From NCBI GenBank assembly GCA_964525525.1, contig CAZGHD010000001.1:5288-69287 (forward strand): 64,000 nt of DNA. Reading direction: 5' to 3'. Below are positions 1,911-63,310 of this stretch, piece after piece. The DNA comes from an uncultured Lachnospiraceae bacterium. GTDB taxonomy: Bacteria > Bacillota > Clostridia > Oscillospirales > CAG-272. Each line of letters opens with the position of its first letter. Position 1 is the stretch's first letter. The notes below the pieces were generated by a model, which was not told the DNA's origin, ran no database searches, and was given only the letters and a program-made list of their open reading frames with translations. The position numbers and the translations under genes are program-made.

Positions 1911-2743
1911 GGATCAAAAAACGTGTGATGCGCGCGGCGTTCTATATTTTTCTCACTTTTGCGGCGCTGGTGTTTATCGCCCCGATAATTATCGTTTTTA
2001 TGAACTCGTTCAAGGGTCAGTTTTTTATAACGGATGCACCGTTCACCTTGCCAAACAGTGAAACCTTTGTCGAACTTGAAAATTACACGAATGGAATCAG
2101 ACGAACGAATTTTATATCCTCGTTCGGGTATTCGCTTTTTATAACTCTTGCGTCGGTTTTGGCAATAGTGCTTTTTTGCTCAATGGCGGCGTGGTTTTTG
2201 GCAAGGGTGAAAAACAGTATAACGCGAACGGTTTACTACGCCTTCGTTTTCAGCATGATAGTGCCGTTTCAGATGGTAATGTTTACTATGTCAAAGGTGG
2301 CGAATATCCTGCGTCTGGATAACCCCCTCGGTATTGTGTTTATCTATCTCGGATTCGGCGCGGGACTGTCGATATTTATGTTTTACGGATTTGCAAGCGG
2401 TATTCCTACCGAGATCGAAGAAGCCGCTACAATAGACGGATGTTCGCCGATAACGATGTTCTTCAGGGTTATCTTTCCGATACTGCGCCCTATCGCAACG
2501 ACGGTTGCTATTCTTAATACCATGTGGATATGGAACGACTATCTGCTCCCTTATCTCGTGATAGGAAACAGCTATAAAACCATTCCGATAGCAGTTCAGT
2601 ACCTTGAGGGCGGATACGGCTCGCGCGATATGGGAGCCTTGATGGCACTGCTAGTGTTATCCGTTATCCCGATAATAATATTCTACCTCGCCGCGCAAAA
2701 GCAGATAGTCAAAGGTGTGGTCGCAGGTGCCGTAAAAGGTTGA
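1907..2743 (+). CDS. Carbohydrate ABC transporter permease (MalG/UgpE-like)
   Basis: EAA loop (IEEAATIDGCSPITMFFRVIFP). Its start overlaps the upstream stop as ATGA. Confidence 0.9.
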   Translation: MRIKKRVMRAAFYIFLTFAALVFIAPIIIVFMNSFKGQFFITDAPFTLPNSETFVELENYTNGIRRTNFISSFGYSLFITLASVLAIVLFCSMAAWFLARVKNSITRTVYYAFVFSMIVPFQMVMFTMSKVANILRLDNPLGIVFIYLGFGAGLSIFMFYGFASGIPTEIEEAATIDGCSPITMFFRVIFPILRPIATTVAILNTMWIWNDYLLPYLVIGNSYKTIPIAVQYLEGGYGSRDMGALMALLVLSVIPIIIFYLAAQKQIVKGVVAGAVKG

Positions 2744-2831
2744 TATGCATTATAGTAATATATAACTTTTTAGTGCGTAATGGCATATCTCGTATAAACA
2801 GGTAAAAATTATTTTTATAAGGAGAAACAAA

Positions 2832-4298: not shown

Positions 4299-4388
4299 AC
4301 GTTTTCTCAAAATTTGACAATCCTTTCTTTTTATGATATAATCTGTGGGATAGAAATGAAAGGATAGGCTTTAGCCGACGACCGTTTT

Positions 4389-7590: not shown

Positions 7591-9594
7591 TTAACTTCCT
7601 TGAGTACTTACCCGGCTGATTATGTGATCCTGCATTTCGGTGCAGAGATCGACGAATCTCGCGCTGTAACCCCAGACACGGACGATCAGATCGGCGTGAG
7701 AGTCGGGATCTTTTTGCGCCGCTTTGAGTTCTTCTACGTCGTAGGCGGCGATGTTGAACATCGAAAGTCCTTTTTCGATTCCGGCATCAACCAGGGTTTC
7801 CATTACAGTCATTTGCTGTTCTCTTGGGAGATTGAGCATTTTCGGAATGGAGATATGTACCGCCGCAACTCCGAATGCGCGGCCGAGATCAGCCTTGCCA
7901 ATGGAGTTAATAAGTGCCGTCGGACCGTTTAACGCGCGGCCGGGAGTAGCGCAGTAATGCTCGGCTATGGGATCCTTCCACTTGCGTCCGTCAGGCGTTG
8001 CCCAGGTGCCGTAAGCCTCCTGCAAAAACAGCCAGCCGACAAGCGACGGCCATATCAGGATACCGTTATCGCGGCTGAATTCTTCAAGCCAGTCGCAGAA
8101 ATTTTTCGCAATATCTGCGGCGATAAGATCGACCTCGTCAATATCGTTTCCGAATTTAGGTGCGGCAAGAAGGGCAGAGCGAATCTCGTCGTGTCCTTCA
8201 AAGTTTGCCGCGAGAGCATCCATAACCTCGGTCATCGTGTATTTTTTGTCGTCGTAAACGACCTTTTTGATAGCCGCTATCCCGTCAGCGACGGTGGGGA
8301 TAGAGCCGGAGAATATCTGATAACACTCAACCGGCATTCCGCGAATCATATCGCGTCCGCTGTCAAGCACGAAATCAAACGTACCGTTTAAGATAAACGA
8401 GCCGTGTTCTTTTACTCTGTATTCGTGGCGTAATTTAAGGCCTTCACAGCATTGGAGCGCCTGATATTTGTATTGCGAGAGAAATACGTTATAGAATTCA
8501 TCAAAGGTTTTGCATTCGGTGACGTCTCCGCTTTCAAATCCGAGAGATGCGTCGGGGCGATGTATTGACGGCTGATTGTCTTTGTGCCAGTATCGAACGC
8601 CTTGATCTTCCGGGCGGTCAAACAATTTACCGTTGTTCATAGTGATCTCAAGAGTGGATACTGCGTCTATATGATCGAAGTTTATCATACTTCCGCCGTC
8701 GATAATTATCTCGGTACATCCGTCGTTTGTGTAACGGCAAGCCCAATTTTCTGGGATTCCCGCTTTAACGAGCGCAGGGATGATTATCTCGTCGTTATAT
8801 ACCGTTGCCTGGCCGTGTCCGAGGAGCTGAACTTCAAACGCTTTTTCTCTCAGTTCGGCAGGCATATTTTTGTGGAAACGCACGTTCATATGAGGCTCGG
8901 GCATTTTTACGCGGCGGGTAGCCTCAAGCATAAGAACAGAAAGGCGGTTTGACGCATCGCTTCCGTCCTCGTTTCTTCCGCCGACCATCACGTTGATAAG
9001 AGTATCTCCTGTACCGCAGGTGTTAAGACGCTCCCAAAGATCGCAAAGAATATCCTGCGCTTCGTCTTCGGTGATAATGCCGTTTTTCACGTCGTTCTCG
9101 TAAAAACCGCCGAGCGCGACGTCAAGACGGCCGATGCACGAGGTACCGAACACGTTACGCAGACGCCACATAAGATAGAAAAGCTGTACCGCTTGTTCAA
9201 AGGTTTCGGGCTTTCCATCGGCTATTGCCGCCATATTTTTACGCATACGCAGAAGTCGCGCGTCGTCACTGTTCGTGATCATTTCGTCTAACTGCGCGAC
9301 CGTCCTTTTGAAAAAATCTGCTATCTCAAGATACACCTCGCCGAGAAGAGTGAGAAATTCCTTTTCTTCTTCGCCCGCGCTTTCCGCGTTTTTGAACGCC
9401 TTTTCGGCGATGCCTTTAACTCCGTATTTATAAAACGCATCGCCCATAGGGAAGTGGAGGTTATCGTTAGGACCGAAATACACGGGATGCCCGTGCATCG
9501 GAATGCCGACGATGCACCCCTTTTCGGGAATTTCAGCGATGATGGCGCGTGTCAGCGCATTACAGTCTCTTGCTATATCTTGGTAAGCTGACAT
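7591..9594 (-). CDS. Glycyl radical enzyme (PFL-like fold), short 667-aa form, eliminase-type Cys loop
   Basis: C-terminal glycyl radical motif RVWGYSARF (Gly codon at 7669-7671). Cys loop NDGCTEI (Cys codon at 8716-8718). Other conserved GRE blocks are IGRLD, ATPDGR and GPTALINS. Confidence 0.85.
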   Translation of the reverse strand: MSAYQDIARDCNALTRAIIAEIPEKGCIVGIPMHGHPVYFGPNDNLHFPMGDAFYKYGVKGIAEKAFKNAESAGEEEKEFLTLLGEVYLEIADFFKRTVAQLDEMITNSDDARLLRMRKNMAAIADGKPETFEQAVQLFYLMWRLRNVFGTSCIGRLDVALGGFYENDVKNGIITEDEAQDILCDLWERLNTCGTGDTLINVMVGGRNEDGSDASNRLSVLMLEATRRVKMPEPHMNVRFHKNMPAELREKAFEVQLLGHGQATVYNDEIIIPALVKAGIPENWACRYTNDGCTEIIIDGGSMINFDHIDAVSTLEITMNNGKLFDRPEDQGVRYWHKDNQPSIHRPDASLGFESGDVTECKTFDEFYNVFLSQYKYQALQCCEGLKLRHEYRVKEHGSFILNGTFDFVLDSGRDMIRGMPVECYQIFSGSIPTVADGIAAIKKVVYDDKKYTMTEVMDALAANFEGHDEIRSALLAAPKFGNDIDEVDLIAADIAKNFCDWLEEFSRDNGILIWPSLVGWLFLQEAYGTWATPDGRKWKDPIAEHYCATPGRALNGPTALINSIGKADLGRAFGVAAVHISIPKMLNLPREQQMTVMETLVDAGIEKGLSMFNIAAYDVEELKAAQKDPDSHADLIVRVWGYSARFVDLCTEMQDHIISRVSTQGS

Positions 9595-34889: not shown

Positions 34890-35194
34890 ATATATATTCC
34901 TAAAGCTTTTAAAATAAATGTCCGCAGAAAAGCGGCGGATATAAAAGATATTACGTTTATAAAGGCGATCATAAAAACTACGGGTATTGCATTGAATCTG
35001 TAATTTTTAACGTATTTCCAAAACAGGAAATACAGATGCCCGACGCGGACGTAAAGCGGAGCGATTACTGCCGCAAGTGCCGCGTGAAAAGATATAAAAT
35101 AAAGCATCGCCGCAAACGAACTGATCGTGATAAATACTTTTAGTATTTTATGCCACGGAACTAAAATATAGTTTATTCTGTCAGGAGTTTCCAT
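34886..35194 (-). CDS. Small 3-TM membrane protein, translationally coupled to the MutS-family gene
   Basis: Hydrophobic 102-aa product. Its stop overlaps the downstream start as ATGA. Confidence 0.5.
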   Translation of the reverse strand: METPDRINYILVPWHKILKVFITISSFAAMLYFISFHAALAAVIAPLYVRVGHLYFLFWKYVKNYRFNAIPVVFMIAFINVISFISAAFLRTFILKALGIYI

Positions 35195-35196
35195 TT

Positions 35197-35316
35197 TTAT
35201 ATTTTGTTTGCCTTTTCAATAAGAGCTTTAAATCTGTCTGTGTCGCGAATGGGCTCAAGGTCGCGGGTGTTCATCTCTTTGCGGAGACGGTATATGGTCT
35301 TTCCTATAGAATGCAT
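35197..35316 (-). CDS. Possible 39-aa ORF (MHSIGKTIYRLRKEMNTRDLEPIRDTDRFKALIEKANKI)
   Basis: Hand-translated. RBS GAGGTGACCGCA precedes the ATG, and the stop lies 2 nt before the next start codon. It resembles the first helix of XRE-type HTH proteins but is too short for a full domain. Confidence 0.3.
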   Translation of the reverse strand: MHSIGKTIYRLRKEMNTRDLEPIRDTDRFKALIEKANKI

Positions 35317-35429
35317 TGCGGTCACCTCGTTTTCTTTATATTATTGCAGTGCTTTAAGAATATTATATCAAACTGAAAATAAAAAGTAAACAGAGAGAAA
35401 GTAGAGAAAAAACCAACGGCGCGTTGAGT

Positions 35430-35815
35430 TAAGTCAAGACCACCAGCCGTGCCGATGGCTTGCACAAGCCCCCTTGGGGTACTTCACATGCTGAGCCTAT
35501 AGGCTCGTCGAATTATCCGTCACTTGCGGTAGTTGCCCTACTACCACAGATGTGGTAACTATATTAAGCCTCCCTTGTGTAAAGGGAGGGGGACCACGAA
35601 GTGGTGGAGGGATTGTAAGGTAAATAATAAATAGAAAACAATCCCTCAGTCAAAAATCAAAGATTTTTGCCAGCTCCCTTTGCACAAGGGCGCCTCCCGC
35701 TGCGGCGGGAACCGTCTAAAGCTAAAGCTTTTTGGCACCACCGGCACTGCCGATGGTTGTGTAGACAATACGATCTCCGCCCAAACGTGCAAAACGTTCG
35801 GGTGGAGAATTTGTT
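35430..35815. ncRNA. Hairpin-dense non-coding region, candidate structured RNA of unknown class
   Basis: About 14 consecutive short perfect or near-perfect hairpins and no credible ORF. The two G-U pairs I found favour the + strand. The last hairpin (35777-35805, GCAAA loop) is followed by AGAATTTGTTT. Confidence 0.3.
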
Positions 35816-35842
35816 TAGTAAAGAGTACCTTAGATTTTGCGA

Positions 35843-38440
35843 TTACTTATTATCCCTTGCGGCGATGTCAGCTTCGTAGTTTGCTCTGTCCTGAGTGCCG
35901 AGGGCGTTGCGGAAGAGAACTATTCCGGACTCGTCTTCGTCAAAGGTGTATTCTACCGAGCCGTGCCAGCCGTTACCGAGCTCTGTCGGTTCGTAACGGC
36001 GGAACAGTGAATCAGCCACGGGGAAGTAGCCCTCGCCCTTGCCGCGGTAATCGGTCAGCTCCCAGATGCAGTCGAGCTTGCCGTCCTTTCCGTACGGGCG
36101 GGAGAATTTAACTATACCTATCTCGGGTGCAAACCAGTACTCCATCTTGCCGCCGCGATAGCCGTAACCTCCTTCGGGACCGGTAAGATCGAATTTTATG
36201 TGTCGGCAGTTTTCAAACGTTCCCGCTTTGGTTATAACGGTTTCCTCGTCAAGCACGTCGAACACAAGGTGATTGGATTTTCCTTTCCACGTGGGCACGT
36301 TGCGCTCATCGTGATACCCGGGTATCCATTCGTCACTCCATATAGTACCTGCCGCGTCATAGAGAATATCGTAAAGGAAGCTATAGAGAACTTTATAGCC
36401 CTCGTCTCCGCAGTTACCCATATCCTTCCACTCAAAGCTGTATTTTCTGTTGTCAGAAATTTTAACCTTTCCGTCATTTGTGTCAACGTCTATAAGCTCA
36501 AAGAAGTTCCAATGTCCCTTTTCGGTATAACTCGGGTTGAAACCGGGGTCGGTTGCCAATATACGCTGCATTACGTCGGTCGCGATAGCGATATGCACCT
36601 TTTCACGCTTGGTTTTTGCAAGCTCTGCGGCGCGGGCAAGCGGCTTGCTTACGTCTACGATAGCTTCACCACCGTCGTTTTCGGTATAATAACCGCGACG
36701 TACGTGGAGCATATTACCTTTCCATGAATCATCGTAACCGAGATGCTGTACGAATGTGTATGCTTTGACAGTTACGCTGTCGTCGGCAGCGGCGGTTACC
36801 TCAAAGGTGTTTTCCGCTTCGACTATAACTGCGTCGGTGGATTTGGGTGTGTAGCTCCATTTGTTGCCCACAGCGAACGGGAGCATTCCGCTGCCGCCGA
36901 GTATGGTGTAGCTGTCAAGCTCCCATTCATTTGTCTCGTCATAGCGGTTTACGATCTGGTGCACGATACCGACGCCGGGACAGAAGGTGGTATCGCAGAA
37001 TTTAACACCGTATTTTTCACCTTTGAAACGGTAAAGTGAGCAGTTTTCAAATTTTCCTGCAGGGGTATCGACAGTTACGTCGTTTGATACGTAAGTCAGG
37101 GTGCTGTCACCGCTTGTCTTAACGTCGCCCGGCTTCATTTCGGGGTCGTATATAAGACTGTTAAGTCTCGAGCACTGCCAGAAAAGTGATGAGTCGTATT
37201 CGTCTGCATAGCCGCGGTGATAACCCGGCTGTGACCAGAAATAGAGCTTACCGTCGATATACTTATATACCTCGCCCTGAACTCCGAAACGGAATTTTTC
37301 ATAGGGGAGATCAAGCTCGTGCGCTTTTTTCTCCGCGTCGATCGCCGCGAGAGCGTTTGCGTAGTAAACGTCGCTCGGCTCGAGAAGCTCGAGTACCTTG
37401 TTGTATGCATTCATACAGTCCTCGTAATTTTTCTCGTCGCGGGAGTAGCATCCGTACCAGAAGTATGTGTATGCCAAGGATTTTACAAATCCGTTTTCTT
37501 CGAGAAACGGCATCTGCGTATTTTTCATAAAATCAAGGCGTTCTTTGCCGGAATATTTTCCGTGCTCATACGCCATTACCGACTGCATTACATCGTCGTT
37601 ATGGCTATTTAACGCTGCGTCCTTCATTTTAGCAAGAACTTCGTCGTTTCTCTCACCCGGCAACCACCAATATCCTCTCATAAGTACCTCTGCGAGAGCG
37701 TACTGCTTTTCATTTGATTCATCAAGCGCTTCGACGTCCCCAAGGACACGGCGATATTCTTCCTCAAAGCCGGTTATGTCGTCTCTGATCTGCCACAGCT
37801 TGAGCTCCTCGACCTGCCGCATAACGCGTTTTACGAGAGCTTCGTTTTCGTCGTATGTCTTTTCCATAATACCGTATTCCTTTCTCAGTTGTTTCCGCCC
37901 CTCGCACAGACGCCACTTTACCGTCCCTGCCGGCAGGGAAAGGCGCGCGGCTATCTCGGCGACCGAAAGACCTTCAAAGTAATGCAGAGTGACCGCCTCG
38001 CGTATCTTTTCACTCAGTGCTTCAACGGCCGTGTGAAGCTCTGACGCCTGCTCGTCCTTTGACAGATTTGCGATACCGAGCATATCGAGTATTTCGCTAT
38101 TCTCATCGTCTGCAAGCTCAATGCCCGAGAGCAGGTCAAGGCTGATGTCGGGAACGGTACTGCGGTAGTGAGCGACCAGAGTGCGAGCCTTGTTTTTGGC
38201 TATGTGACACACCCAGGAACCGAATTTATTGCGGTCTTTGAGCGAGTCGAGATTGATCCACGCAGAAACGAATGCGTCCTGTGACGCATCCTGCGCGGAA
38301 AATTCGTTTTCGGTCACCTTGTAGGCAGTTCCGAGAACCGAACGCTCGTGACGCAGTACCAGCTCTTCAAACGCGAGCTGATTTCCGAGCAGGGTCAGCT
38401 CTACGAGAACGTCGTCATTGTGTTCCGTGTGTTTTGTCAT
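35843..38440 (-). CDS. ECF-type sigma factor fused to a roughly 670-aa soluble C-terminal extension
   Basis: Residues 1-190 hold sigma regions 2 and 4 (..QDAFVSAWINL..FGSWVCHIAKNKA.., ..LSVAEIAARLSLPAGTVKWRLCEGRKQL). The rest has no TM segment. It comprises a helical W/Y-rich part and then two related beta-rich modules (AGKFENC..PGVGIV..WEL / AGTFENC..PEIGIV..WEL). Confidence 0.8.
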   Translation of the reverse strand: MTKHTEHNDDVLVELTLLGNQLAFEELVLRHERSVLGTAYKVTENEFSAQDASQDAFVSAWINLDSLKDRNKFGSWVCHIAKNKARTLVAHYRSTVPDISLDLLSGIELADDENSEILDMLGIANLSKDEQASELHTAVEALSEKIREAVTLHYFEGLSVAEIAARLSLPAGTVKWRLCEGRKQLRKEYGIMEKTYDENEALVKRVMRQVEELKLWQIRDDITGFEEEYRRVLGDVEALDESNEKQYALAEVLMRGYWWLPGERNDEVLAKMKDAALNSHNDDVMQSVMAYEHGKYSGKERLDFMKNTQMPFLEENGFVKSLAYTYFWYGCYSRDEKNYEDCMNAYNKVLELLEPSDVYYANALAAIDAEKKAHELDLPYEKFRFGVQGEVYKYIDGKLYFWSQPGYHRGYADEYDSSLFWQCSRLNSLIYDPEMKPGDVKTSGDSTLTYVSNDVTVDTPAGKFENCSLYRFKGEKYGVKFCDTTFCPGVGIVHQIVNRYDETNEWELDSYTILGGSGMLPFAVGNKWSYTPKSTDAVIVEAENTFEVTAAADDSVTVKAYTFVQHLGYDDSWKGNMLHVRRGYYTENDGGEAIVDVSKPLARAAELAKTKREKVHIAIATDVMQRILATDPGFNPSYTEKGHWNFFELIDVDTNDGKVKISDNRKYSFEWKDMGNCGDEGYKVLYSFLYDILYDAAGTIWSDEWIPGYHDERNVPTWKGKSNHLVFDVLDEETVITKAGTFENCRHIKFDLTGPEGGYGYRGGKMEYWFAPEIGIVKFSRPYGKDGKLDCIWELTDYRGKGEGYFPVADSLFRRYEPTELGNGWHGSVEYTFDEDESGIVLFRNALGTQDRANYEADIAARDNK

Positions 38441-38529
38441 CTTGCATTTCCTTTCTTTTGCTTTTCCGTCCTACGGAGCGGTCTTTTTGGGGCTTTCACT
38501 TATAAGACTCGGAAAATGAGTAAAAGGTT
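38434..38529. repeat. Direct repeat copy 1: promoter, leader and start codon of the sigma-fusion gene
   Basis: Positions 38484-38529 are identical over 46 nt to 42222-42267. Similarity continues to TTGTCAT (38434-40 = 42195-201), which includes the start codon. Copy 1 has a 22-nt extra segment. Confidence 0.9.
38501..38529 (-). promoter_or_regulatory. Candidate promoter inside repeat copy 1
   Basis: Minus strand reads AACC-N15-GAGTCTTATAAG. The repeat begins exactly at AAC. Whether this is an ECF-type (AAC..GTC) or sigma-A-type (TATAAG) promoter cannot be decided by eye. Confidence 0.35.
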
Positions 38530-38573
38530 GGGTAAAGCGAAAAAAATTTTAGGCTTGGCTCAAAAATATTCTT

Positions 38574-40358
38574 TTACACATATTTACTTGCCTGTAAATT
38601 GAATAGATGTGCATACTTTCCATTCTGCTTCAAAAGCTCAAAATGTGATCCTTGTTCGATAATACGTCCATCATCTATAACAAGTATCTTATCGGCAAGC
38701 GTGGTATTGGAAAGTCTGTGTGAAATCGTAACCGAACTTTTACCTTCGCTCAAATGATAGAGCTGTTCGAAAATTCTATCCTCCGAGATAGGGTCAAGCG
38801 CAGCAGACGGCTCGTCAAGAATCATATATTCGCTATCTTTGAAGTATGCACGGGCAAGTCCAACGAGCTGCCATTGGCCGCCCGAAAGATCTTTGCCGTT
38901 GTCTGCATAGTAGCGTCCAAGAACGCTGTCAAAACCGTTCTCCCAATCCTTGATGACTTCACTTGCGCCGCTGATGTCGCAAGCCTTTTTCAGTTTCTCG
39001 TCATTAAAACGGTTGTCGAAATCCGATAGAGCAATGATTTCTCGTAGCGGCAGACAGTAAGTAACATAGTCTTGAAACAGCACACCAAATACTTTTCGTA
39101 CTGCGTAAACATCATATTCCTTCAAATCCACGCCGTCGAGCTTGATGCAGCCTTCCTCGGGATCATAGAAGCGGAACATCAGCTTGATAATCGTGGATTT
39201 TCCTGCACCATTCAAGCCTATCAGACCAATTTTTTCATGCGGTTCTATGGTAAAGGAACAATCCTTCAGTACATATTGCTCCGCATTGGGATAACGGAAG
39301 GATACGTTGCAGAACTCGATTTTTGGATTATTCGACGGCTTCAAGGTTCCGCTTTTTTCTACCTCGGATTTAATATCCATAAATTCCCGAAGTTCTGTCA
39401 AACGATCATTATCATTTAAAAAAACGTCAATACTATTCATCAGTGTCTGGGTTTGATTTCGTAATCTGGATACTATACTTAAATTATACTGTAAATCACC
39501 TATACCAATTATTTTATGAATTACATCCAATGCAGAAATAGTAATCACTAAAAATTCACTGGACAAATTAATAATCATAATTAGTGTATTGATAATGTTG
39601 TGTTTTATATTTTCGTGAAAATTTATACGGAACAGCTTTTCCCACACTTCATTGCGCTTGTTAAGAAAATATGAGCCTATGTTGTTCAACTTAATTTCAA
39701 ACTGCACATTATTGTCGAAGAATAATCCGCTGTAATAGTCTTTTTTTCGATTATCACGAAGCTGTTGTTTCTCCATCTCCATTCTGTGTTCTGTGTGCTT
39801 TTTATTATACAGAAAATACGGTACCAACAGGAGAAGGGTTGCAATTCCAAGCCACCATTTGTATGTACACACGATTACAAAAGTTGTAATAACGTTGATA
39901 AATGCAGAAACAATATCAAAAAACAACCATGTCATTTGAGTCATAGTTCCGAAATTATTTCGTGCGTGACGAACCTTATCACCCATCTCTGCACTATCAA
40001 AAAAGGCAAGATCCATTCGGGATGTTTTGTCCATCATAACGGCTTCAATATAAAACTGTATTTCAAAACCATATCGCGAGTTTACATACAAATTAAATCG
40101 TGCAAGCATATATATAAGAAGCTGCAATATAAGGTAAATAGCGAGGTTAAAGAAAACTGCTTGGAAATTTCTTGGGACATTTGCTATGCCATTCAATATT
40201 TCTCTCCACAGACCTATATTTATCAAAGGGATTACTGTGGTTGAAAGAAGAATCAATAATTTCATAGAAAAATAGAATTTCGATGCAAAAAAACTGGTTT
40301 TAAACCCAAACCACAAATTCCCAATAATTCCTCTGAAAAAATCATTGATTTTCTTCAT
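38574..40358 (-). CDS. ABC exporter, fused permease/ATPase half-transporter (second subunit)
   Basis: Six-TM N-terminal half. Walker A GLNGAGKST, signature LSGGQWQL, Walker B YMILDEPSAALD, H-loop TISHR. AT-rich coding sequence. Confidence 0.9.
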   Translation of the reverse strand: MKKINDFFRGIIGNLWFGFKTSFFASKFYFSMKLLILLSTTVIPLINIGLWREILNGIANVPRNFQAVFFNLAIYLILQLLIYMLARFNLYVNSRYGFEIQFYIEAVMMDKTSRMDLAFFDSAEMGDKVRHARNNFGTMTQMTWLFFDIVSAFINVITTFVIVCTYKWWLGIATLLLLVPYFLYNKKHTEHRMEMEKQQLRDNRKKDYYSGLFFDNNVQFEIKLNNIGSYFLNKRNEVWEKLFRINFHENIKHNIINTLIMIINLSSEFLVITISALDVIHKIIGIGDLQYNLSIVSRLRNQTQTLMNSIDVFLNDNDRLTELREFMDIKSEVEKSGTLKPSNNPKIEFCNVSFRYPNAEQYVLKDCSFTIEPHEKIGLIGLNGAGKSTIIKLMFRFYDPEEGCIKLDGVDLKEYDVYAVRKVFGVLFQDYVTYCLPLREIIALSDFDNRFNDEKLKKACDISGASEVIKDWENGFDSVLGRYYADNGKDLSGGQWQLVGLARAYFKDSEYMILDEPSAALDPISEDRIFEQLYHLSEGKSSVTISHRLSNTTLADKILVIDDGRIIEQGSHFELLKQNGKYAHLFNLQASKYV

Positions 40359-42145
40359 ATTGCTTTATCCTCCTTTAAAGTATACTTTTCACGCTGGAGG
40401 TTATAGAGTTTTGCGTATAGACCGTCAAGTGAAATAAGCTCGTCATGTGTACCTTCTTCCTTGATTTTTCCATCATCCAGTACGATTATTTTATTTGACA
40501 TACGAGTACTTGAAATACGGTGTGAGATCATAACACCTGTTTTTTTATGTGCTATGACTTCATAGTTTTTAAAAATCTGATCCTCAGCCTCTGCATCAAG
40601 TGCGGCTGACGGTTCGTCAAAAATAATGATGGGAGCGTTTTTGAAATAAGCTCGTGATAACGCAATCTTTTGCCATTGACCCTTTGAAAGCTCGGTACCT
40701 TTGTCGTCAAATTGACGTGTCATAAATGAGTCAATCCCATTTTCAAGTTTGGGACGCAAATCATCATATACACCGCTTTGTATCAATACATTCTGAATTT
40801 CATCGTTATTGTCCATACGTTCAGGTGCGGATAGAGCAATATTTTCTCTCAGTGTAAGCGGATATTGCACAAAACTTTGAAATAATACCGAAAATAAGTT
40901 TCTCACATCCCGTATATCGTAATCCGCCATTGGGTAACCGTTTATCAAAATTTGTCCCGATTCAATTTCGTAAAGTCCCAGCATCAGCTTTATAATTGTG
41001 GATTTACCTGAACCGTTGATACCGACTATAGAGAGCTTGTCACCACGGTTCAGCGTGAAAGAGGCACCTGATAAAACATATTTTTCGGTATAAGGATACT
41101 TGAAATAGACATTTTCAAAGCTAAGAGATTCAAATGTTTCCAATTTCCTCGATTTAATATTTATATCAGGACAATCTAAGGCAAAAAAGGCAAATACTCG
41201 GCCCATTCTTTGCGCTGTCCTCGTATATCCAAATACAATAACATCCAACATGGTTTTGAATGTGTTTGTAGCAGAAAGTGCAAATCCTGTGTACAGCGCT
41301 ACATCACCTATACTTATATCTGAAATCATAGCTTTATAAACGACAAATGCTGTGAATACTATTTCACCAATGCGCATAATTAGTTCCACAGGAAGTGACG
41401 CGAACAGTTTTTTCTTATCGAGTTTTTTGTTTTCTTTTGTAAATTCGTTTTTCTCCGTAAGATATCTGTCCTTTATATTATCAGTAAGATCATACATTCG
41501 TACATCTTTTGCGGGCCAAGCATCGGTTAGCATCCAACGATAATAATTGAATTTTCGTGTATCCGGTGCCGTCTTCATACGCAAATTTTCTGATTTTTTA
41601 TCGAATACACTTCTTAAAATAATAGATGGTATAGTTAATATAAGAAATAACATCGCGAACCAAACATGAAAATTCACAAGAGCAGTGAATGTTACAGCAA
41701 AAGTGTAGGCATATGTTATGACCCGCACAATATTATCCGCCAGATGAACTGCGGCAACCGTAGAATAACGTACATCGGTAACTACATTTTTTCCATTGGC
41801 AGAATCAATAAACGACATTGGAAGTTGGTTCATTTTTGCAAGTACATCCCGTTCATACTGTTCCTGTGCTCTTTCAAATATGGAATTATAGAGCAAAGTA
41901 TGTACACTGTTCATTCCACAAGAAAGAAGAAGAATGGCGATATAAAGACCTATTAAAGAAAGAAGAACCGATAAATTGGGTGAGTACAGGGTTAAATTTT
42001 CTAAAATATATTTCATAACCAATGTGCCGGATAATGTTAATGTAGAACATATCAAGGCAACTATCCAGTAAACCACAACCATATATTTACTGGACTTGTA
42101 CAACAAACCAAATGAGTAGAATATTGATTTAAGGTAAAGTTTCAT
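40355..42145 (-). CDS. ABC exporter, fused permease/ATPase half-transporter (first subunit)
   Basis: Walker A GINGSGKST, signature LSKGQWQK, Walker B IIIFDEPSAALD, H-loop MISHR. ATGA overlap with the second subunit. No N-terminal C39 peptidase domain. Confidence 0.9.
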   Translation of the reverse strand: MKLYLKSIFYSFGLLYKSSKYMVVVYWIVALICSTLTLSGTLVMKYILENLTLYSPNLSVLLSLIGLYIAILLLSCGMNSVHTLLYNSIFERAQEQYERDVLAKMNQLPMSFIDSANGKNVVTDVRYSTVAAVHLADNIVRVITYAYTFAVTFTALVNFHVWFAMLFLILTIPSIILRSVFDKKSENLRMKTAPDTRKFNYYRWMLTDAWPAKDVRMYDLTDNIKDRYLTEKNEFTKENKKLDKKKLFASLPVELIMRIGEIVFTAFVVYKAMISDISIGDVALYTGFALSATNTFKTMLDVIVFGYTRTAQRMGRVFAFFALDCPDINIKSRKLETFESLSFENVYFKYPYTEKYVLSGASFTLNRGDKLSIVGINGSGKSTIIKLMLGLYEIESGQILINGYPMADYDIRDVRNLFSVLFQSFVQYPLTLRENIALSAPERMDNNDEIQNVLIQSGVYDDLRPKLENGIDSFMTRQFDDKGTELSKGQWQKIALSRAYFKNAPIIIFDEPSAALDAEAEDQIFKNYEVIAHKKTGVMISHRISSTRMSNKIIVLDDGKIKEEGTHDELISLDGLYAKLYNLQREKYTLKEDKAI

Positions 42146-42201
42146 TATTTCCTCCTCGAATAATAGCCCTGGTGAATTTTAAAACAACTTATACTTGTCA
42201 T
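42145..42201 (-). CDS. 18-codon relic/leader ORF (MTSISCFKIHQGYYSRRK) starting at the duplicated sigma start codon
   Basis: ATGACAA is shared with the sigma gene start. The TAA stop overlaps the ABC gene ATG as TAATG, and AGGAGG lies inside the uORF. Confidence 0.35.
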   Translation of the reverse strand: MTSISCFKIHQGYYSRRK

Positions 42202-42267
42202 CTTACATTTCCTTTTTTGCGTTTTTGGGGCTTTCACTTATAAGACTCGGAAAATGAGTAAAAGGTT
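42195..42267. repeat. Direct repeat copy 2, upstream of the ABC exporter operon
   Basis: See copy 1. Identical 46-mer plus a conserved block containing the start codon. Confidence 0.9.
42240..42267 (-). promoter_or_regulatory. Candidate promoter inside repeat copy 2
   Basis: Same AACC-N15-GAGTCTTATAAG sequence as in copy 1, placed just downstream of the relQ-like gene terminator. Confidence 0.35.
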
Positions 42268-42280
42268 TGCTTTTTTTGAA

Positions 42281-42329
42281 AAAAATATAAAAAAGTGGAT
42301 CAACTGCTTAAAAAACAGCCGATCCACTT
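42281..42329 (-). terminator. Intrinsic terminator after the small alarmone synthetase gene
   Basis: 9-bp stem AAGTGGATC/GATCCACTT with inner pairing, followed on the minus strand by TTTTATATTTTT. Confidence 0.7.
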
Positions 42330-42339
42330 GATTTTTTTG

Positions 42340-43020
42340 TTATTTTTCCGCGTCGATCTGACGGCGGATAGACTGCATTTCAAGGTCTATTGCGGCGATC
42401 TTATCCGAGCACTCACGGAGCTGCGCGGCGATCACTTCGGGATTTTCAACGTCTTTTTTATACTTGAGCTTGTGCTCAAGACTTGCCCAGAAGTCCATCG
42501 CTATCGTGCGGAACTGTACTTCAACTTCCATACGCTCTGTAGATTCGGTGAGGAATATCGGAATGTTTATTATCATATGGTAGCTTCTGTATCCGCTTTC
42601 CTTGGGATTTTTTATGTAGTCCTTTATCTCAATTACGTTTATGTCGTCCTGACGCATAAACATCTCGGACAGCATATAAATATCCTCGGGGAAGGAGCAG
42701 ATTATCCGCGCGCCTGCAACGTCGTGAACGTGCGCGCGGACGTTTTCGAGATTTACCTCGTAATTTTTACGGTTCAGCTTTTCGATTATACTTTGCGGAC
42801 TTTTTATTCGGGTCTTTATTGATTCAACCGGGTTGCGGTTGTATCTTATTGAAAATTCATCGTCAAGCACTTCAAACTTGGTAGCAACCTCTTTCAGCGC
42901 GCAGTTGTATTTCATCATAAGCTCGATAAACGGGCGCTGATTTGCAAGCAGAGGATGCTCGTCAAGATTTGAAATCTGCAGTTTTTTCGGGCGATCGTTA
43001 AGGCTGATCATTTTTATCAC
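42340..43020 (-). CDS. Small alarmone synthetase (RelQ/RelP-type GTP pyrophosphokinase)
   Basis: RelA/SpoT synthetase motifs GYRSYHMII and VEVQFRTIAMDFWASLEH. 226 aa with no hydrolase domain. Confidence 0.9.
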   Translation of the reverse strand: MIKMISLNDRPKKLQISNLDEHPLLANQRPFIELMMKYNCALKEVATKFEVLDDEFSIRYNRNPVESIKTRIKSPQSIIEKLNRKNYEVNLENVRAHVHDVAGARIICSFPEDIYMLSEMFMRQDDINVIEIKDYIKNPKESGYRSYHMIINIPIFLTESTERMEVEVQFRTIAMDFWASLEHKLKYKKDVENPEVIAAQLRECSDKIAAIDLEMQSIRRQIDAEK

Positions 43021-43132
43021 CTCCGGATTTTATAATGGGGAGTGCAACCTTACTAAATATATTATAGCATGGCTTTATTAAGAATAAAGAAACTTAATGT
43101 GACGGATTTCGGTTTTTTTATTCACATAATCA

Positions 43133-58774: not shown

Positions 58775-59707
58775 ATGAGCGGGAATATCGGATTTTTCGA
58801 TGAAACAGAAAAAATAAAACGCAGATATGCGGATTCAAAAGATGTTGAGCGTTTAAAAAACGATCTGCGCGGACTTCATAAAGAATACGGTGAATGCTAC
58901 GGTGCGGGTGACTATCTGCTTAACATTGGCGAGTCATATATAGACAGTGGTGACAATACGGCGGGATTTGCTTTTATAGAGGTAGTGGCGGAATGTTTTG
59001 CCCGTGTAAATAATATTACGCTGTTGTGTATGAGAATGGCGGAATACTGTATTGAAAACGGAGAAACGGAAAATGGCAAAGAGTACTTAATAAAACTTTG
59101 TACAAAGATAAGCAACTACGAGGAATCCATCGAATTTAACTGTTTGACTGGTGTTTGGAAAAAATATAACTTTTTGGTTGAAGGACTGATTCCACCGCCT
59201 GTATCTATTTACGGTCCGAGTTCCGATTGTGTTTTGCGTCCGCTTCCTGAAGATTGCAGTGTGCAGATCGAGGATATTTTAGCTTTGCCTGACTCGGATA
59301 TTCTTGACGAACTGTCCGTTCATTTGAACGAGCTGTCAGCAGACGGACAATATATTAAATTTCTTAACAAATGGGAAAAAACAGTTTTCTTTGTAGATGA
59401 ACTTTGTATCAGAATTAATTCCGGCGGGTTTGAAGAATATTTATCATATTCCGGAACACATTTTGAAAAGGCATATCAGGCGTTTGAGGTAACAAAAGAT
59501 GACGTGATGTTATCTATAATGGATAGTGTCAGAGCTAAATTTCCAAAAAATAAAATACCGAAATCATTAAACAGTATACAAAACGCAATAGAAAAAAACG
59601 GTATTGATTTTGATGATGCCGATTCTGCATTTTACAGCTCCGGGGTGAATTCGCTTATGTCTGCACTGACAGCTTTTGTTAAGGAAAACAAAAGAAATTT
59701 CAGATAA
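58775..59707 (+). CDS. Hypothetical protein with a C-terminal DUF4375 (DMP19-like) domain
   Basis: WEKTVFFVDELCIRINSGGFEEYLSYSG resembles the DUF4375 core as I recall it. The N-terminal half is helical. Visibly AT-rich gene. Confidence 0.5.
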   Translation: MSGNIGFFDETEKIKRRYADSKDVERLKNDLRGLHKEYGECYGAGDYLLNIGESYIDSGDNTAGFAFIEVVAECFARVNNITLLCMRMAEYCIENGETENGKEYLIKLCTKISNYEESIEFNCLTGVWKKYNFLVEGLIPPPVSIYGPSSDCVLRPLPEDCSVQIEDILALPDSDILDELSVHLNELSADGQYIKFLNKWEKTVFFVDELCIRINSGGFEEYLSYSGTHFEKAYQAFEVTKDDVMLSIMDSVRAKFPKNKIPKSLNSIQNAIEKNGIDFDDADSAFYSSGVNSLMSALTAFVKENKRNFR

Positions 59708-59772
59708 AAAATATCGGGTTAAGGTGTCTGTGTCATAAAATCTATTGGTAAATTATTCTTTGGAGACAGAAA

Positions 59773-60516
59773 ATGAAAAAGTTTAAGATTATTTTGTCGG
59801 TATTAACTCTTGTTTTTCTGCTTGTAGTCGCTTGTTCGTGCAGTGATACGGATAAATCGGTTGACGTATTAAGTGATATTACTTCCGTAACCGATACTGC
59901 CGTTGATACAACTATCTTTGAAGAGACTACGGAAGAAATTACAGAAAAAGCCACAGAAACAGAAGATAAAGTACCCGAAACTACCGCACATTTTCATCAG
60001 TTTTATGAGGCGACCTGTACCTCTCCTATAACGTGTATTACCTGCGGAGAGACAGACGGCGAAGCACTTGGACATCAGTGGAAGGGTGCGACGTGCGACT
60101 CGCCTGATTTATGTGCCAGATGCGGTGAAACTAACGGAAAAGAGATAGGACATAAATGGGGAGCCGCTTCATGTACCGAACCTAAAAAGTGTTCGGTGTG
60201 CGGAGATACGGACGGAAATGCTCTCGGACATACTTGGAAGAACGCTTCTTGTACCGAGCCTAAAACTTGCTTGGTATGCAGCGAGACGTCAGGGACTGCA
60301 ACGGGGCACAGTTATTCCGGGGAAAAATGTACGTCTTGCGGAGAGAAGAATCCAAGTTATACACCTTCTGCTGATGGAGAAGTTTGGATTCCCACAAGAG
60401 GCGGAAAGAAATATCATAAAACTGCGGACTGCAGCGGTATGATAGATCCTTTGTATGTTACGAAAGCTGAAGCGCTAAGCCAAGGCTTTGATGCGTGTAA
60501 ACGGTGCTACAAATAG
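59773..60516 (+). CDS. Lipoprotein with four tandem Cys-rich repeats and a C-terminal Cys/His motif
   Basis: Lipobox VVAC. Repeats follow the pattern C..P..C..CGET.G...GH.W..A. C-terminal GGKKYHKTADCSG...CKRC. Confidence 0.6.
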   Translation: MKKFKIILSVLTLVFLLVVACSCSDTDKSVDVLSDITSVTDTAVDTTIFEETTEEITEKATETEDKVPETTAHFHQFYEATCTSPITCITCGETDGEALGHQWKGATCDSPDLCARCGETNGKEIGHKWGAASCTEPKKCSVCGDTDGNALGHTWKNASCTEPKTCLVCSETSGTATGHSYSGEKCTSCGEKNPSYTPSADGEVWIPTRGGKKYHKTADCSGMIDPLYVTKAEALSQGFDACKRCYK

Positions 60517-60546
60517 TAGCTGATTCAGAAAAGGGGAATGTAAATT

Positions 60547-61968
60547 ATGAACATTAAAGATATAGGGTTCCACCGCATTTTTTCGAAAACCATGTACAAA
60601 AACTTAAAACTGCCTCTTTGGGAAATGACGTTTACTAAGGACTTCGTCAGCGACAAACGCGGAGATCTATATCCCGTTATAAACAAAAGCGATGATTGCG
60701 AGGAGAGCGTTGAGCATAATCGGTATAACGTAAAATCGGGCAGTGTCTCGCGCTTGGTCGGAAGTTTTTTTTCGTATGCAACGCAGGAGATTACTTTCAA
60801 CGCCAAATGCGGCTTATGCGGATTTGAATTCGTTCTTCCTGAAGGAAAAGCGTCCGTAACGTATAAAAAAGGATGCGTGGCTTTCTCTGACGGAAAAGCG
60901 GAGGAATCGGTTTTATATGAAAATGCAAGCGAACAGGTGACAATGATAGTTTCGTGCAGACCGGAAGCCTTTGACGTTTACTTTTTGTGTAACGGACAGC
61001 CTGAATATTTCCATACCTTCCGCTCGGCTGATTTTGAAAACTCCAATGATCAGAAGGTGTTTTCAAAAGGGTACGTTTCACTGCTTGCGGCAGACGGTGT
61101 GACGGTATGCGCCGTTTCTTCGTATATTGACTGCGGAATTTCACAGGCGGATATGCGTCCTATACGGTACGAAAACGGAGACGTTATATTTGAAAACGGC
61201 AAGGTGTTTTTAAGTCTGTCCGTCCGCATACAGGAAAAAATGTTCCAGGGTATAGTTTCCTGGGTTCCGAGTACGTCTGATTTTGAACTGACAGGAGCGC
61301 TTTTCTATGACAGCGGTGACGGAAAATGGTGCGGAGACGTTGCGGCGTCCATACTTTTTAATCGCAAAACAAACGAGTGGAATTTGTGGGTCTGCTCATT
61401 TTCTCACGGTCACGTTTTAGGTCACGCCGCGTTTGAGGGCGATCCACGTTTCGGCGTTAACGTTGTTGATATTAAACTTATGGACAAAGTGGGCAAAGAG
61501 TACGATGCTACTGAATTTTTGGGCTTTGAGGGTGATGAAGATCCCGATTTTTACTATAACGAGCAAGAAGACAAGTGGTATATGGCAATTTGCCGCATAG
61601 ATCCGTCGATAAACAGTTACAGGTATATGTTTTTTACCTCCGACAACCCGTTTGATAATTATAAATTCATAGGTCAAGGTTGCGACGGCGCGGAAACAGG
61701 CGGCTCGTTTGTTACTATTGACGGCGAAAAAGTATTTGCCTGCGGAAATTCATTTGAAAAAAGATCAGACTACCGCATTTATACCAAAGACGGTATGTAT
61801 AATCCCAAATTCGATTTTGATGACGGCGGTGTTCGCGGCTGGGGAACGATAATTCCGGTTAAAATGGGAAGTCGCACCCGTTATTTTTGGATGACGTTTG
61901 ACCGCCATAACGCAAGCTCGTATAATTGGAGTTACGGTAACGTCTATTGCTTTGAGGCGGAATTATAA
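60547..61968 (+). CDS. Hypothetical cytoplasmic protein, possibly a beta-propeller/glycosidase-like fold
   Basis: Long ORF with good coding character. No motif I can assign confidently. Confidence 0.5.
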   Translation: MNIKDIGFHRIFSKTMYKNLKLPLWEMTFTKDFVSDKRGDLYPVINKSDDCEESVEHNRYNVKSGSVSRLVGSFFSYATQEITFNAKCGLCGFEFVLPEGKASVTYKKGCVAFSDGKAEESVLYENASEQVTMIVSCRPEAFDVYFLCNGQPEYFHTFRSADFENSNDQKVFSKGYVSLLAADGVTVCAVSSYIDCGISQADMRPIRYENGDVIFENGKVFLSLSVRIQEKMFQGIVSWVPSTSDFELTGALFYDSGDGKWCGDVAASILFNRKTNEWNLWVCSFSHGHVLGHAAFEGDPRFGVNVVDIKLMDKVGKEYDATEFLGFEGDEDPDFYYNEQEDKWYMAICRIDPSINSYRYMFFTSDNPFDNYKFIGQGCDGAETGGSFVTIDGEKVFACGNSFEKRSDYRIYTKDGMYNPKFDFDDGGVRGWGTIIPVKMGSRTRYFWMTFDRHNASSYNWSYGNVYCFEAEL

Positions 61969-61988
61969 TAAACAGAGGTATTACGACA

Positions 61989-62657
61989 ATGAAAATTTCA
62001 TTTCTTTTCGATTTTGACGGAACACTGGTAGATTCAATGCCCACTTACGTTTCCGCAATGCTCCGTATTCTTAATGAAAATAATGTTAGTTATGACGACG
62101 ACATCGTCAAGATCATAACCCCGCTCGGTATGGCGGGAACAGCCGATTACTATATCAAAGAACTTGGACTAAAGCTTAGCAAGGAGCAGATCATTTCCTT
62201 GATGAAGGAATATATGCTTGATGCTTATCTGTACACTATTCCCGCTAAATCTAACGTCATTTCGGTACTAAAAAAGCTGAAACAGCAGGGCGCGAGCCTG
62301 AACGTTCTTACCGCAAGTCCGCACGTTACACTGGATGCTTGCCTCAAACGGCTTGGTATGTGGGAGCTTTTTGATAACGTTTGGTCGTGCGAAGATTTTT
62401 CTACAACAAAAGCAGACCCGCAAATATACGTCAAGGCGGCAGAAAAAATGAACACGTCTGTGGATAAGGTTCTGTTTTTAGATGATAATCTGGGGGCAGA
62501 TACTGTTGCCAAATCAGCGGGAATGCCGGTTTGCGGAGTGTATGATGAATCATCAAAGGAATATACCGATCAAATCAAGGCTGTTACCGATTGCTATATT
62601 TACGATTTTGAAGAATTGCCCGAGCTGGAAATCGTCAAAAACGGGTTGTCTGATTAA
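61989..62657 (+). CDS. HAD-IA family hydrolase
   Basis: FLFDFDGTLVDS motif I, LTAS motif II, LDDNLGAD motif IV. Confidence 0.8.
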   Translation: MKISFLFDFDGTLVDSMPTYVSAMLRILNENNVSYDDDIVKIITPLGMAGTADYYIKELGLKLSKEQIISLMKEYMLDAYLYTIPAKSNVISVLKKLKQQGASLNVLTASPHVTLDACLKRLGMWELFDNVWSCEDFSTTKADPQIYVKAAEKMNTSVDKVLFLDDNLGADTVAKSAGMPVCGVYDESSKEYTDQIKAVTDCYIYDFEELPELEIVKNGLSD

Positions 62658-62680
62658 TACTGAAATTATGTAGGTGCTTT

Positions 62681-63310
62681 ATGAAAAACGTATTACTGAT
62701 CGGAGACTCTATCAGAAGGGGATATGATGAAGCGGTTAAGAAGTCGCTTGAACCGTTTGCCTCGGTTTATTTTCCTTCTGAAAATTGCCGTTTTACTTCT
62801 TTTCTTCTGCGGTATCTTCATGAATATATGAAAATCGTCCCTGACGGAAAGATCGACGTTATTCATTGGAATGCCGGACTTTGGGATTGCCTGCGTATGT
62901 TTGGGGAGGAACCGCAGACGCCTGTAGATATATACGCTTACTATATCGACCGTATTTGTGTCCGTATAAAAAATTTAATCCCCGAAGCCACGGTCATATT
63001 CGCTACGTCTACGTCTGTAATCTCTGAAGAAATGGGTAAGGATTTCAAACGGTATAACGAAGATATTGAAGAATATAACAGAGCCGCGATTGCGGTCATA
63101 GAAAAATACGGATTTATCGTAAACGATCTTTACGCCACCTCTGTAAAGCTTCCGAAGGAAGCACATTCCGACCCCGTGCACTATTATACGACTATTGGTA
63201 CTGAAGCCTTTGCAAATCAAGTGATTTCCTATATTGCTCCCGCGCTCGGAATTACGGAAAAGGTTATCTATAAAGAGGAACTGTATAGTGATAAGCCTGT
63301 AGGAATTTAA
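62681..63310 (+). CDS. SGNH/GDSL hydrolase
   Basis: VLLIGDSIRRGY block I, NAGLWD block III, and DPVHY (the DxxH block). Confidence 0.8.
   Translation: MKNVLLIGDSIRRGYDEAVKKSLEPFASVYFPSENCRFTSFLLRYLHEYMKIVPDGKIDVIHWNAGLWDCLRMFGEEPQTPVDIYAYYIDRICVRIKNLIPEATVIFATSTSVISEEMGKDFKRYNEDIEEYNRAAIAVIEKYGFIVNDLYATSVKLPKEAHSDPVHYYTTIGTEAFANQVISYIAPALGITEKVIYKEELYSDKPVGI

Follow-up and report, generated by a model that had tools for sequence, protein, structure and literature searches.

We analyzed a 64-kb stretch of DNA (hereafter, the window) from contig CAZGHD010000001.1 of an uncultured Lachnospiraceae bacterium. The region of interest, in which all genes are on the minus strand, contains a gene for a large sigma factor fusion protein of the extracytoplasmic function (ECF) type and, upstream of it, two overlapping genes (ABC1 and ABC2) for an ATP-binding cassette (ABC) exporter. 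A relQ-like gene lies further upstream. The exporter genes are bracketed by two copies of a block that comprises the promoter-like element, leader and start codon of the sigma gene (Table 1). We describe this arrangement here and argue that the exporter was probably acquired horizontally and came to stand behind a duplicate of the sigma gene's own promoter-like element.

Table 1. Features of the exporter-sigma region, in window coordinates. GC3, G+C content at third codon positions; MFE, minimum free energy; NBD, nucleotide-binding domain; ORF, open reading frame; TMD, transmembrane domain; TPR, tetratricopeptide repeat.
Feature	Position	Strand	Evidence and remarks
Sigma fusion gene, 865 aa	35843..38440	-	ECF sigma (sigma2 + sigma4) at aa 1-190, TPR-like helical region at ~200-376, two beta-rich DUF3108-like domains
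Copy 1 leader: ribosome-binding site and sigma start ATGACAA	38434..38460	-	Alignments
23-nt insert, copy 1 only	38461..38483	-	Hairpin TCCGT-AGG-ACGGA in sigma leader; absent from copy 2, L002 and L036
Repeat copy 1, 46-nt core; promoter-like element of the sigma gene itself	38484..38529	-	-35 at 38529-38522; -10 region at 38508-38495
Spacer from ABC2 stop to copy 1, 44 nt	38530..38573	-	No convincing terminator; fold z = -0.36
ABC2, half-transporter, 594 aa	38574..40358	-	Pfam; signature LSGGQ, Walker B ...LDE; GC3 0.390
ABC1, half-transporter, TMD-NBD, 596 aa	40355..42145	-	Pfam; signature LSKGQ, Walker B ...FDE; GC3 0.318
Upstream ORF, 18 codons, MTSISCFKIHQGYYSRRK	42145..42201	-	Start is the duplicated sigma ATG; translation
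Copy 2 leader: duplicated sigma ribosome-binding site AAGGAAA and ATGACAA	42195..42221	-	Alignments
Repeat copy 2, 46-nt core	42222..42267	-	ECF-type promoter-like; -35 AACCTTTT at 42267-42260; -10/start region GTCTTATAAGTGAA at 42246-42233
Intrinsic terminator of relQ-like gene	42293..42329	-	17-bp stem, T run; MFE -23.3 kcal/mol, z = -7.6
relQ-like small alarmone synthetase gene, 226 aa; native upstream neighbour	42340..43020	-	Pfam RelA_SpoT 1.5e-32

A repeat search of the window showed that the two 46-nt cores form an exact direct repeat. The 46-mer has only these two matches in the window, even when 3 mismatches are allowed, and none was expected from 100 shuffles. A second block of similarity, with 84% ungapped identity, opens with TTGTCAT at 38434-38440 and 42195-42201; on the coding strand it consists of a ribosome-binding site followed by ATGACAA, which is the sigma start codon plus 4 nt. 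Read on that strand, each copy has the order AACCTTTT, a 13-nt spacer, GTCTTATAAGTGAAAGCCCCAAAAA, a short A-rich leader, AAGGAAA and ATGACAA. Copy 1 has a net surplus of 23 nt (GACCGCTCCGTAGGACGGAAAAG), which contain a small 5-bp hairpin. This insert aside, alignment of the two leaders revealed one substitution and a 2-nt indel, and neither leader fold was significantly structured. Rfam gave no matches, either in the whole window at the gathering threshold or in 35100-43100 at E ≤ 1. Thus, neither the repeat nor the leaders belong to a known class of riboswitch or leader RNA.

The two exporter genes overlap by 4 nt, and ABC_membrane and ABC_tran domains are present in each product. Both reading frames are uninterrupted, and their Walker A, Walker B and H-loop motifs have the canonical form; the Walker B D-E pair is found in both subunits, and the signature motif is deviant in ABC1 only. 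PDB matches of ABC1 were ABCB1, Sav1866, BmrCD and MsbA. No C39 peptidase domain was found in either protein with Pfam and NCBIfam; the proteins open with the TMD, and their matches to NHLM/bacteriocin models begin at about model position 145-190. On its domain content, the pump is classified as an ABCB-type heterodimeric exporter. The G+C content is 0.361 in ABC1 and 0.372 in ABC2, vs. 0.505 in the sigma gene. The mean GC3 of the 41 other long ORFs of the window is 0.532 (sd 0.057), well above the values of both exporter genes, and ABC1 has the lowest GC3 among all 43. A mosaic origin of ABC2, whose 3′ end is GC-richer, was considered and rejected because its homolog in a related exporter locus (L008) has the same gradient.

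The duplicated sigma ATG opens a short upstream ORF whose stop overlaps the ABC1 start (TAATG), and the sequence of this ORF recurs in an independent contig (L001). ABC1 has its own ribosome-binding site, GAGGAGG, in addition to the duplicated sigma site. An attenuator role of the upstream ORF was rejected because a terminator is absent between it and ABC1. On the other side of copy 2 stands the relQ-like gene, which is syntenic with a counterpart in a related locus (L002; 86% aa identity) and whose product matched the NCBIfam YjbM-type model at 2.8e-52, under the equivalog cutoff. Its terminator ends 25 nt before the start of copy 2. A promoter scan found no sigma-70-like promoter between this terminator and ABC1. 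A sigma-70 reading of the core itself, which contains TATAAG in its conserved block, was rejected because there is no -35 or TG extension and the scan was empty. The 44-nt spacer that separates ABC2 from copy 1 showed no significant structure on folding (z = -0.4), and a terminator scan revealed no terminator-like site in it. An earlier note on this DNA had reported the 46-nt identity, its extension through the leader to ATGACAA, the overlapping half-transporter genes of deviant composition, copy 2 as the only obvious promoter of the exporter operon, and the lack of a strong terminator between ABC2 and copy 1. The repeat search with its shuffle test, the alignment, the comparison of G+C and GC3 with other ORFs and the scans bear these observations out; the extra segment of copy 1, given there as 22 nt, came to 23 nt.

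Loci without the exporter were found on two contigs (L002, L003) that carry the closest sigma ortholog, 85% identical. They are syntenic with the window on both sides, in the order IF2, MetH, MtnA-like, ThiF, RelA_SpoT, sigma, a helix-turn-helix (HTH)-TPR gene, a 102-aa ORF and MutS_V. Behind the relQ-like gene and its terminator, these contigs have one promoter copy and then the sigma gene, at a relQ-sigma spacing of 274 nt. By blastn, window 50006-42333 aligned with L002 1-7733 (82.5%) and window 38545-35873 with L002 7914-10571 (86%), and window 38546-42194 had no counterpart in L002. Copy 2 (42289-42195) and copy 1 both mapped to the single L002 site 7909-8007. The last ~20 nt of the spacer before copy 1 (T run plus CGCTTTACCC) resemble the L002 flank upstream of the promoter, blastn homology reaching 38545. 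Another locus (L036/L037; sigma 83% identical) has the L002-type upstream flank and a single copy as well. A same-strand ABC pair upstream of sigma was found by a blastx survey in none of the ~50 ortholog loci fetched, which include more distant sigma-ortholog loci in different synteny. A metagenome scan for closer sigma relatives returned only clades of ~55% identity and thus gave no finer date for the insertion.

The sequence between the -35 and -10 parts differs among these loci. Spacer ACTCATTTTCCGA is common to both window copies, and the corresponding sequence is ACTCATTTTCAGT in L036 and CTCCTTTTTGTTT in L002. Because this non-conserved spacer is shared, the duplication is later than the split from the L002 lineage and thus fairly recent. 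The fact that spacer, leader, ribosome-binding site and the first 7 coding bases are all common to both copies indicates a true duplication and not a similarity of the kind seen within a regulon.

Upstream regions of orthologs that had been found by protein similarity alone (L002, L004, L005, L036 and ~30 metagenome loci) were surveyed for the promoter-like motif. AACCTT(T), a variable spacer of 13-14 nt and CTTATA.G.GAA..CCC occurred 61-76 nt before the start codon in sigma orthologs. The -10 part is GTCTTATAAGTGAA in clades with 63-85% identity and CACTTATAGGCGAA in the ~55% clade; the form AACCTT-N-(G/C)(T/A)CTTATA is kept upstream of orthologs, and its AAC ... GTC layout is ECF-like. Such a layout upstream of the sigma factor's own gene is expected for autoregulated ECF promoters. 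From layout and position, the motif is presumed to be the autoregulated ECF promoter of the sigma fusion. An exact-pattern scan of 185,579 species genomes located the motif in 23 loci, once in each; it lies upstream of sigma-fusion orthologs in 10 of these, and others have it before small ECF sigma/anti-sigma operons or secreted proteins. Its occurrence in front of diverse operons indicates that the repeat core is a promoter class and not a mobile repeat. This spread would also fit the view that the two window copies are independent regulon members, alike through shared sigma binding. However, the other loci share the -35 and -10 blocks only and differ in their spacers, whereas the window copies have in common the spacer, leader, ribosome-binding site, start codon and 4 nt more, and the window contains no further copy even at 3 mismatches. 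We consider independent origin of the copies the least probable of all the explanations weighed here.

In loci of other Clostridia (L013, L018, L020, L026 and L028), the motif TGTAACCTTTT-N13-GTCTTATAAGTGAA stands before operons that pair a small ECF sigma factor (~160 aa) with a single-pass protein of ~175 aa that begins MDFE(K/N)AYQKF, or before genes for secreted proteins or lipoproteins. Its position before small ECF operons shows that the promoter class is common to at least two sigma families.

The nearest homologs of ABC1 (74-75% aa identity) are at cluster ends in loci of ~35% G+C (L008-L010). The cluster (L008 2497-11571, L009, L010) encodes an AMP-binding enzyme, a carrier protein (PP-binding), a second AMP-binding protein, a radical-SAM protein (Fer4_12), a 296-aa protein and a 52-aa cysteine-containing peptide, and looks like an uncharacterised peptide natural-product locus. 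This biosynthetic context of its relatives suggests, by analogy, a peptide or natural product as substrate of the pump. ABC1 homologs with 65% identity (L011/L012) adjoin serine recombinases, an integrative-element context. Nucleotide homology to the homolog loci is limited to 42156-38590, i.e., the exporter genes alone. By Pfam, the insert (38530-42194) contains the two ABC genes and no mobility gene; a repeat search found no terminal inverted repeats around it, and a plasmid search with the insert gave no match. The flanking duplication is 73-96 nt long, and the insert does not classify as a transposon, insertion sequence or integrative element. A foreign origin of the exporter pair is supported by its outlying GC3, its absence from orthologous loci and the occurrence of its homologs in low-GC biosynthetic and mobile contexts.

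The main alternative on how the locus arose is that the exporter state is older and that the "empty" relatives lost the exporter by recombination between the direct repeats. Direct repeats of at least 46 nt are good deletion substrates, and such a loss would leave one promoter copy, as in L002 and L036; this weighs against acquisition in the window lineage. On the other hand, the GC3 of the exporter is far below that of the host, with no sign of amelioration, and the exporter is absent from all other orthologous loci, the distant ones in different synteny included. The shared spacer differs from that of L002 at most positions, which places the duplication after the split unless gene conversion occurred. 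Loss in the relatives is improbable on these grounds.

The window comes from a metagenome-assembled genome (MAG), and a mis-join through the shared 46-mer, with an exporter from another low-GC organism, would account for the foreign composition. In an independent Logan contig (L001), the sequence of 42251-39353 recurs with 100% identity, and repeat, upstream ORF and ABC1 are joined there without mismatch. This short-read contig breaks inside the repeat, which could be read as favouring a mis-join; its start 30 nt inside the repeat is the behaviour of a k=31 assembler at a true repeat. A foreign organism would need the host 46-mer twice, together with the host-specific spacer, ribosome-binding site and ATGACAA, and the distinct flanks of the copies (23-nt insert, 2-nt indel, 1 substitution) are as in true paralogous copies. 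An assembly artefact is thus unlikely, and we rate it as very improbable.

The sigma fusion is, to judge from its domains, an ECF-type (group 4) sigma factor. Pfam placed Sigma70_r2 at aa 27-89 and Sigma70_r4_2 at aa 134-185 and detected neither sigma3 nor sigma1.1, and the match to TIGR02937 (sigma70-ECF) scored 81.4 bits (cutoff 42.9). Top Foldseek matches in PDB were SigW, AlgU and sigmaE, at the N-terminus only. The AlphaFold model (mean predicted local distance difference test score, pLDDT, 88) has TPR-like helices at ~200-376, followed by two beta-rich domains with weak DUF3108 matches. The C-terminal extension of ~670 aa is cytoplasmic, with no transmembrane segment evident. A PDB sequence search with the C-terminus gave marginal TPR matches only; profile searches of the extension gave no SnoaL match and weak TPR matches in some orthologs only, with two DUF3108-like beta domains. 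Naming a ligand from the beta domains was rejected because Foldseek returned only weak matches, with low template-modelling score, to di-domain helix-grip cyclases. In neither the window nor L002 does the sigma gene have an anti-sigma-like neighbour. The full-length architecture had at least 120 matches with 51-100% identity, and among those listed all span the whole protein; the family occurs in Oscillospiraceae and also in other Clostridia. Exact-protein look-ups gave no record for the sigma fusion or ABC2, and ABC1 alone returned a contig (L001). The sigma-fusion family is under-described and the DUF3108 literature is minimal; a text search for "DUF3108" and "TPR" gave no matches in the main text of the 2021 ECF reclassification (PMC7826278).

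Other changes were observed around the sigma gene. An XRE-HTH/TPR regulator gene stands directly downstream of it in L002 (373 aa), L036 and many more distant loci. The window has at 35197-35316 (minus strand) a remnant of 39 in-frame codons, in which residues 1-16 are joined to ~345-373; by blastn, the internal deletion is ~990 nt, with an overlap of ~10 nt at the join. Directly after the sigma stop, ~400 nt at 35430-35840 (minus strand) are absent from L002 and contain G+C hairpins with recurring CTTGTGCAAG-like loops. The MFE of this segment was -152.6, vs. -112.9 ± 5.6 for shuffles (z = -7.1). It had no Rfam match and is single-copy in the window; it could represent either a structured RNA not yet classified or an inserted miniature element. 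Elsewhere, the metagenome contig L058 contains two tandem sigma-fusion paralogs (38-1720 and 1997-4531, with 44% and 46% identity to the query), and tandem duplication thus does occur at this locus in the family. At some distance, a run of genes at 58775-63310 (plus strand) has low GC3 (0.35-0.47, vs. the window mean of 0.53) and may be another acquired island.

We consider it likely, with a probability of about 0.7, that the exporter was acquired horizontally and that promoter capture by duplication put the pump under the presumed autoregulatory promoter of the sigma gene. The second promoter copy is fused to foreign genes, the original unit is retained, and L002 and L036 are single-copy. The junction right after ATGACAA, together with the retained promoter-gene unit, is a signature of promoter capture by duplication. 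The ancestral order would have been relQ-like gene, terminator, intergenic DNA, one ECF-type promoter, leader and sigma fusion. A low-GC two-gene exporter cassette, bringing its own ribosome-binding site and no mobility genes, would then have been gained, and would now lie downstream of a second copy of the sigma promoter with its leader, ribosome-binding site and 7 initial coding bases. Two routes can be envisaged. A single insertion might have produced a target duplication of 73-96 nt. Alternatively, in the manner of promoter capture documented by experiment, a silent cassette may have entered the intergenic region, after which a tandem duplication joined ATGACAA to the cassette and the silent upstream copy was lost. 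The latter route would explain why ~150 nt of L002-type intergenic DNA are missing upstream of window copy 2. After the duplication, copy 1 would have gained the 23-nt hairpin, which copy 2, L002 and L036 all lack. Copy 2, for its part, would have lost 2 nt and undergone a C-to-T substitution close to its ribosome-binding site.

The intergenic DNA of L002 has a structure of its own. A 10-nt direct repeat, TTTTCACGCT (7776-7785 and 7916-7925), marks both ends of the extra sequence at 7776-7925, and small hairpins lie inside. This piece of ~140 nt was either inserted in L002 or deleted between the repeats in the window lineage.

The working of the captured promoter may be pictured as follows. 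The sigma fusion would recognise the motif and autoregulate, and when active would turn on the pump and its own gene at once. By analogy with ECF41, ECF42 and ECF56, the large cytoplasmic C-terminal extension would control this activity in cis. The exporter transcript from copy 2 would open with the 18-codon upstream ORF that ends on the ABC1 start, and transcripts from copy 2 would read through into the sigma gene and strengthen the positive loop. From the arrangement we infer co-regulation of exporter and sigma gene with read-through feedback.

The comparison of loci gives good support to what the earlier note had proposed about origin. The empty site that it had suggested looking for in the relQ-sigma interval of related genomes exists in L002/L003 and L036/L037. 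Together with the repeats, this comparison supports its proposal that the exporter was placed between the sigma gene and its promoter with the block duplicated in the process, and the shared spacer, leader and ATGACAA agree with a copy of the promoter, leader and start codon of the sigma gene on both exporter sides. Horizontal acquisition is supported by GC3, the empty site, the ~50 loci without exporter and the contexts of the homologs. Had the repeat been a generic dispersed element, the proposal would have failed; the core is indeed a generic promoter motif of the family, but the identical spacer, leader and start codon show that it was duplicated here. The note had also spoken of a sigma-sensor-plus-exporter module. 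The pairing is real, but a conserved system is contradicted by its absence from all of the ~50 ortholog loci. To judge from the loci compared, the sigma-exporter pairing is a single recent rearrangement in one genome and not a conserved system.

Several points weigh against horizontal acquisition with promoter capture as set out above. Promoter function, the pairing of sigma factor and promoter, co-induction and read-through all rest on inference from sequence. The upstream edge of the duplication is ambiguous, at 38529 or ~38548. The arrangement is known from one MAG and one short contig, possibly from the same sample. The motif precedes small ECF sigma/anti-sigma operons elsewhere, and a different sigma factor could read the copies. 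Insertion and duplication may have been functionally neutral, in which case copy 2 would be a scar or be read by another sigma factor, and the exporter would be silent or independently expressed, with no co-regulated circuit. This possibility draws on the fact that the motif also occurs before small ECF operons in other genomes, so that its cognate sigma factor is presumed, that the pairing is unique to one genome, and that deletion of the adjoining HTH-TPR gene in the window hints at a decaying locus. However, both ABC ORFs are intact with canonical Walker A, Walker B and H-loop motifs; the 46-nt core has 0 differences between copies, as against one substitution and two indels in the leader beside it; and copy 2 directly follows a strong terminator, with no other promoter-like site. 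We assign the neutral explanation a small but appreciable probability.

A more elaborate version of promoter capture can be formulated. The sigma fusion might be a one-protein cytoplasmic sensor, in which the TPR and twin DUF3108-like domains set the sigma domain free on binding a peptide or a small hydrophobic molecule. Capture of the sigma promoter by the pump would then have created a self-contained "sense-and-efflux" resistance circuit with feed-forward read-through, in which the upstream ORF couples pump translation to the same signal, and the loss of the conserved HTH-TPR gene would belong to the same rewiring. By analogy with the pump's closest relatives, which serve peptide natural-product clusters, such a circuit could, for example, provide orphan immunity to a peptide product of this kind from neighbouring bacteria. 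We regard this version as doubtful.

The locus offers a natural snapshot, at the level of sequence, of an acquired pump gaining regulated expression in a new host; an empty site is at hand for comparison, the junction is exact and the duplication can be dated. Regulation would have been gained by copying a stress-type sigma promoter and not by evolving a new promoter. The locus also points to a large uncharacterised family of ~860-aa ECF sigma fusions, common in gut Oscillospiraceae, whose promoter motif is now defined. If co-regulation is true, the locus is a compact model for the regulatory integration of transferred resistance genes in gut anaerobes.

Promoter capture by duplication activates transferred or silent genes, as found in experimental evolution of Escherichia coli and Bacillus subtilis, and the Cit+ rnk-citT case is cited as an example (PMC11111574). 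As in those cases, a foreign region is fused here to a copy of a resident promoter, the original unit is intact, and the junction lies just inside the resident gene, after ATGACAA. Unlike them, the present event is natural, in an uncultured gut bacterium, and involves an ECF-type promoter rather than a constitutive one. The duplicated block also includes the ribosome-binding site and start codon, which gives rise to the upstream ORF, and one cassette copy is left.

The autoregulated ECF sigma factors sigmaW and sigmaM of B. subtilis have ABC transporters in their regulons. Among the ECF groups, ECF258 is described as "associated to ABC transporters" in the reclassification (Casas-Pastor et al. 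2021, PMC7826278). The present sigma factor resembles such ABC-linked ones in having sigma2 and sigma4, an AAC-type -35 before its own gene, and an exporter operon behind the same motif next door. It differs from them in that none of the ~50 orthologous loci has the association, which is due to a copying of the sigma promoter itself and not to old membership in the regulon. The same text describes ECF41 and ECF56 (SnoaL-like) and ECF42 (TPR) as sigma factors regulated by fused C-terminal extensions (PMC7826278; see also PMC3426412). Like these, the sigma fusion has no adjacent anti-sigma gene and carries a fused cytoplasmic extension of >50 aa, with TPR-like helices following sigma4. Compared by domain content, it is unlike them in its ~670-aa extension with two beta-rich DUF3108-like domains and in its hosts, which are Clostridia (Oscillospiraceae).

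The exporter genes resemble BmrCD/YheIH of B. subtilis (PDB 7m33), in which adjacent overlapping genes for TMD-NBD half-transporters have a short ORF immediately upstream. In B. subtilis, bmrCD is controlled by the BmrB leader peptide. Unlike in BmrCD, both subunits here keep the Walker B glutamate and only the ABC1 signature is deviant (LSKGQ); the stretch between upstream ORF and ABC1 has no attenuator terminator, and the upstream ORF would be a by-product of the duplication. The locus reveals no new kind of system. Its parts, i.e., an ECF sigma factor with an extension, an ABCB-type heterodimer and promoter capture, are all of known kinds, and their combination here is an unusually clean example.

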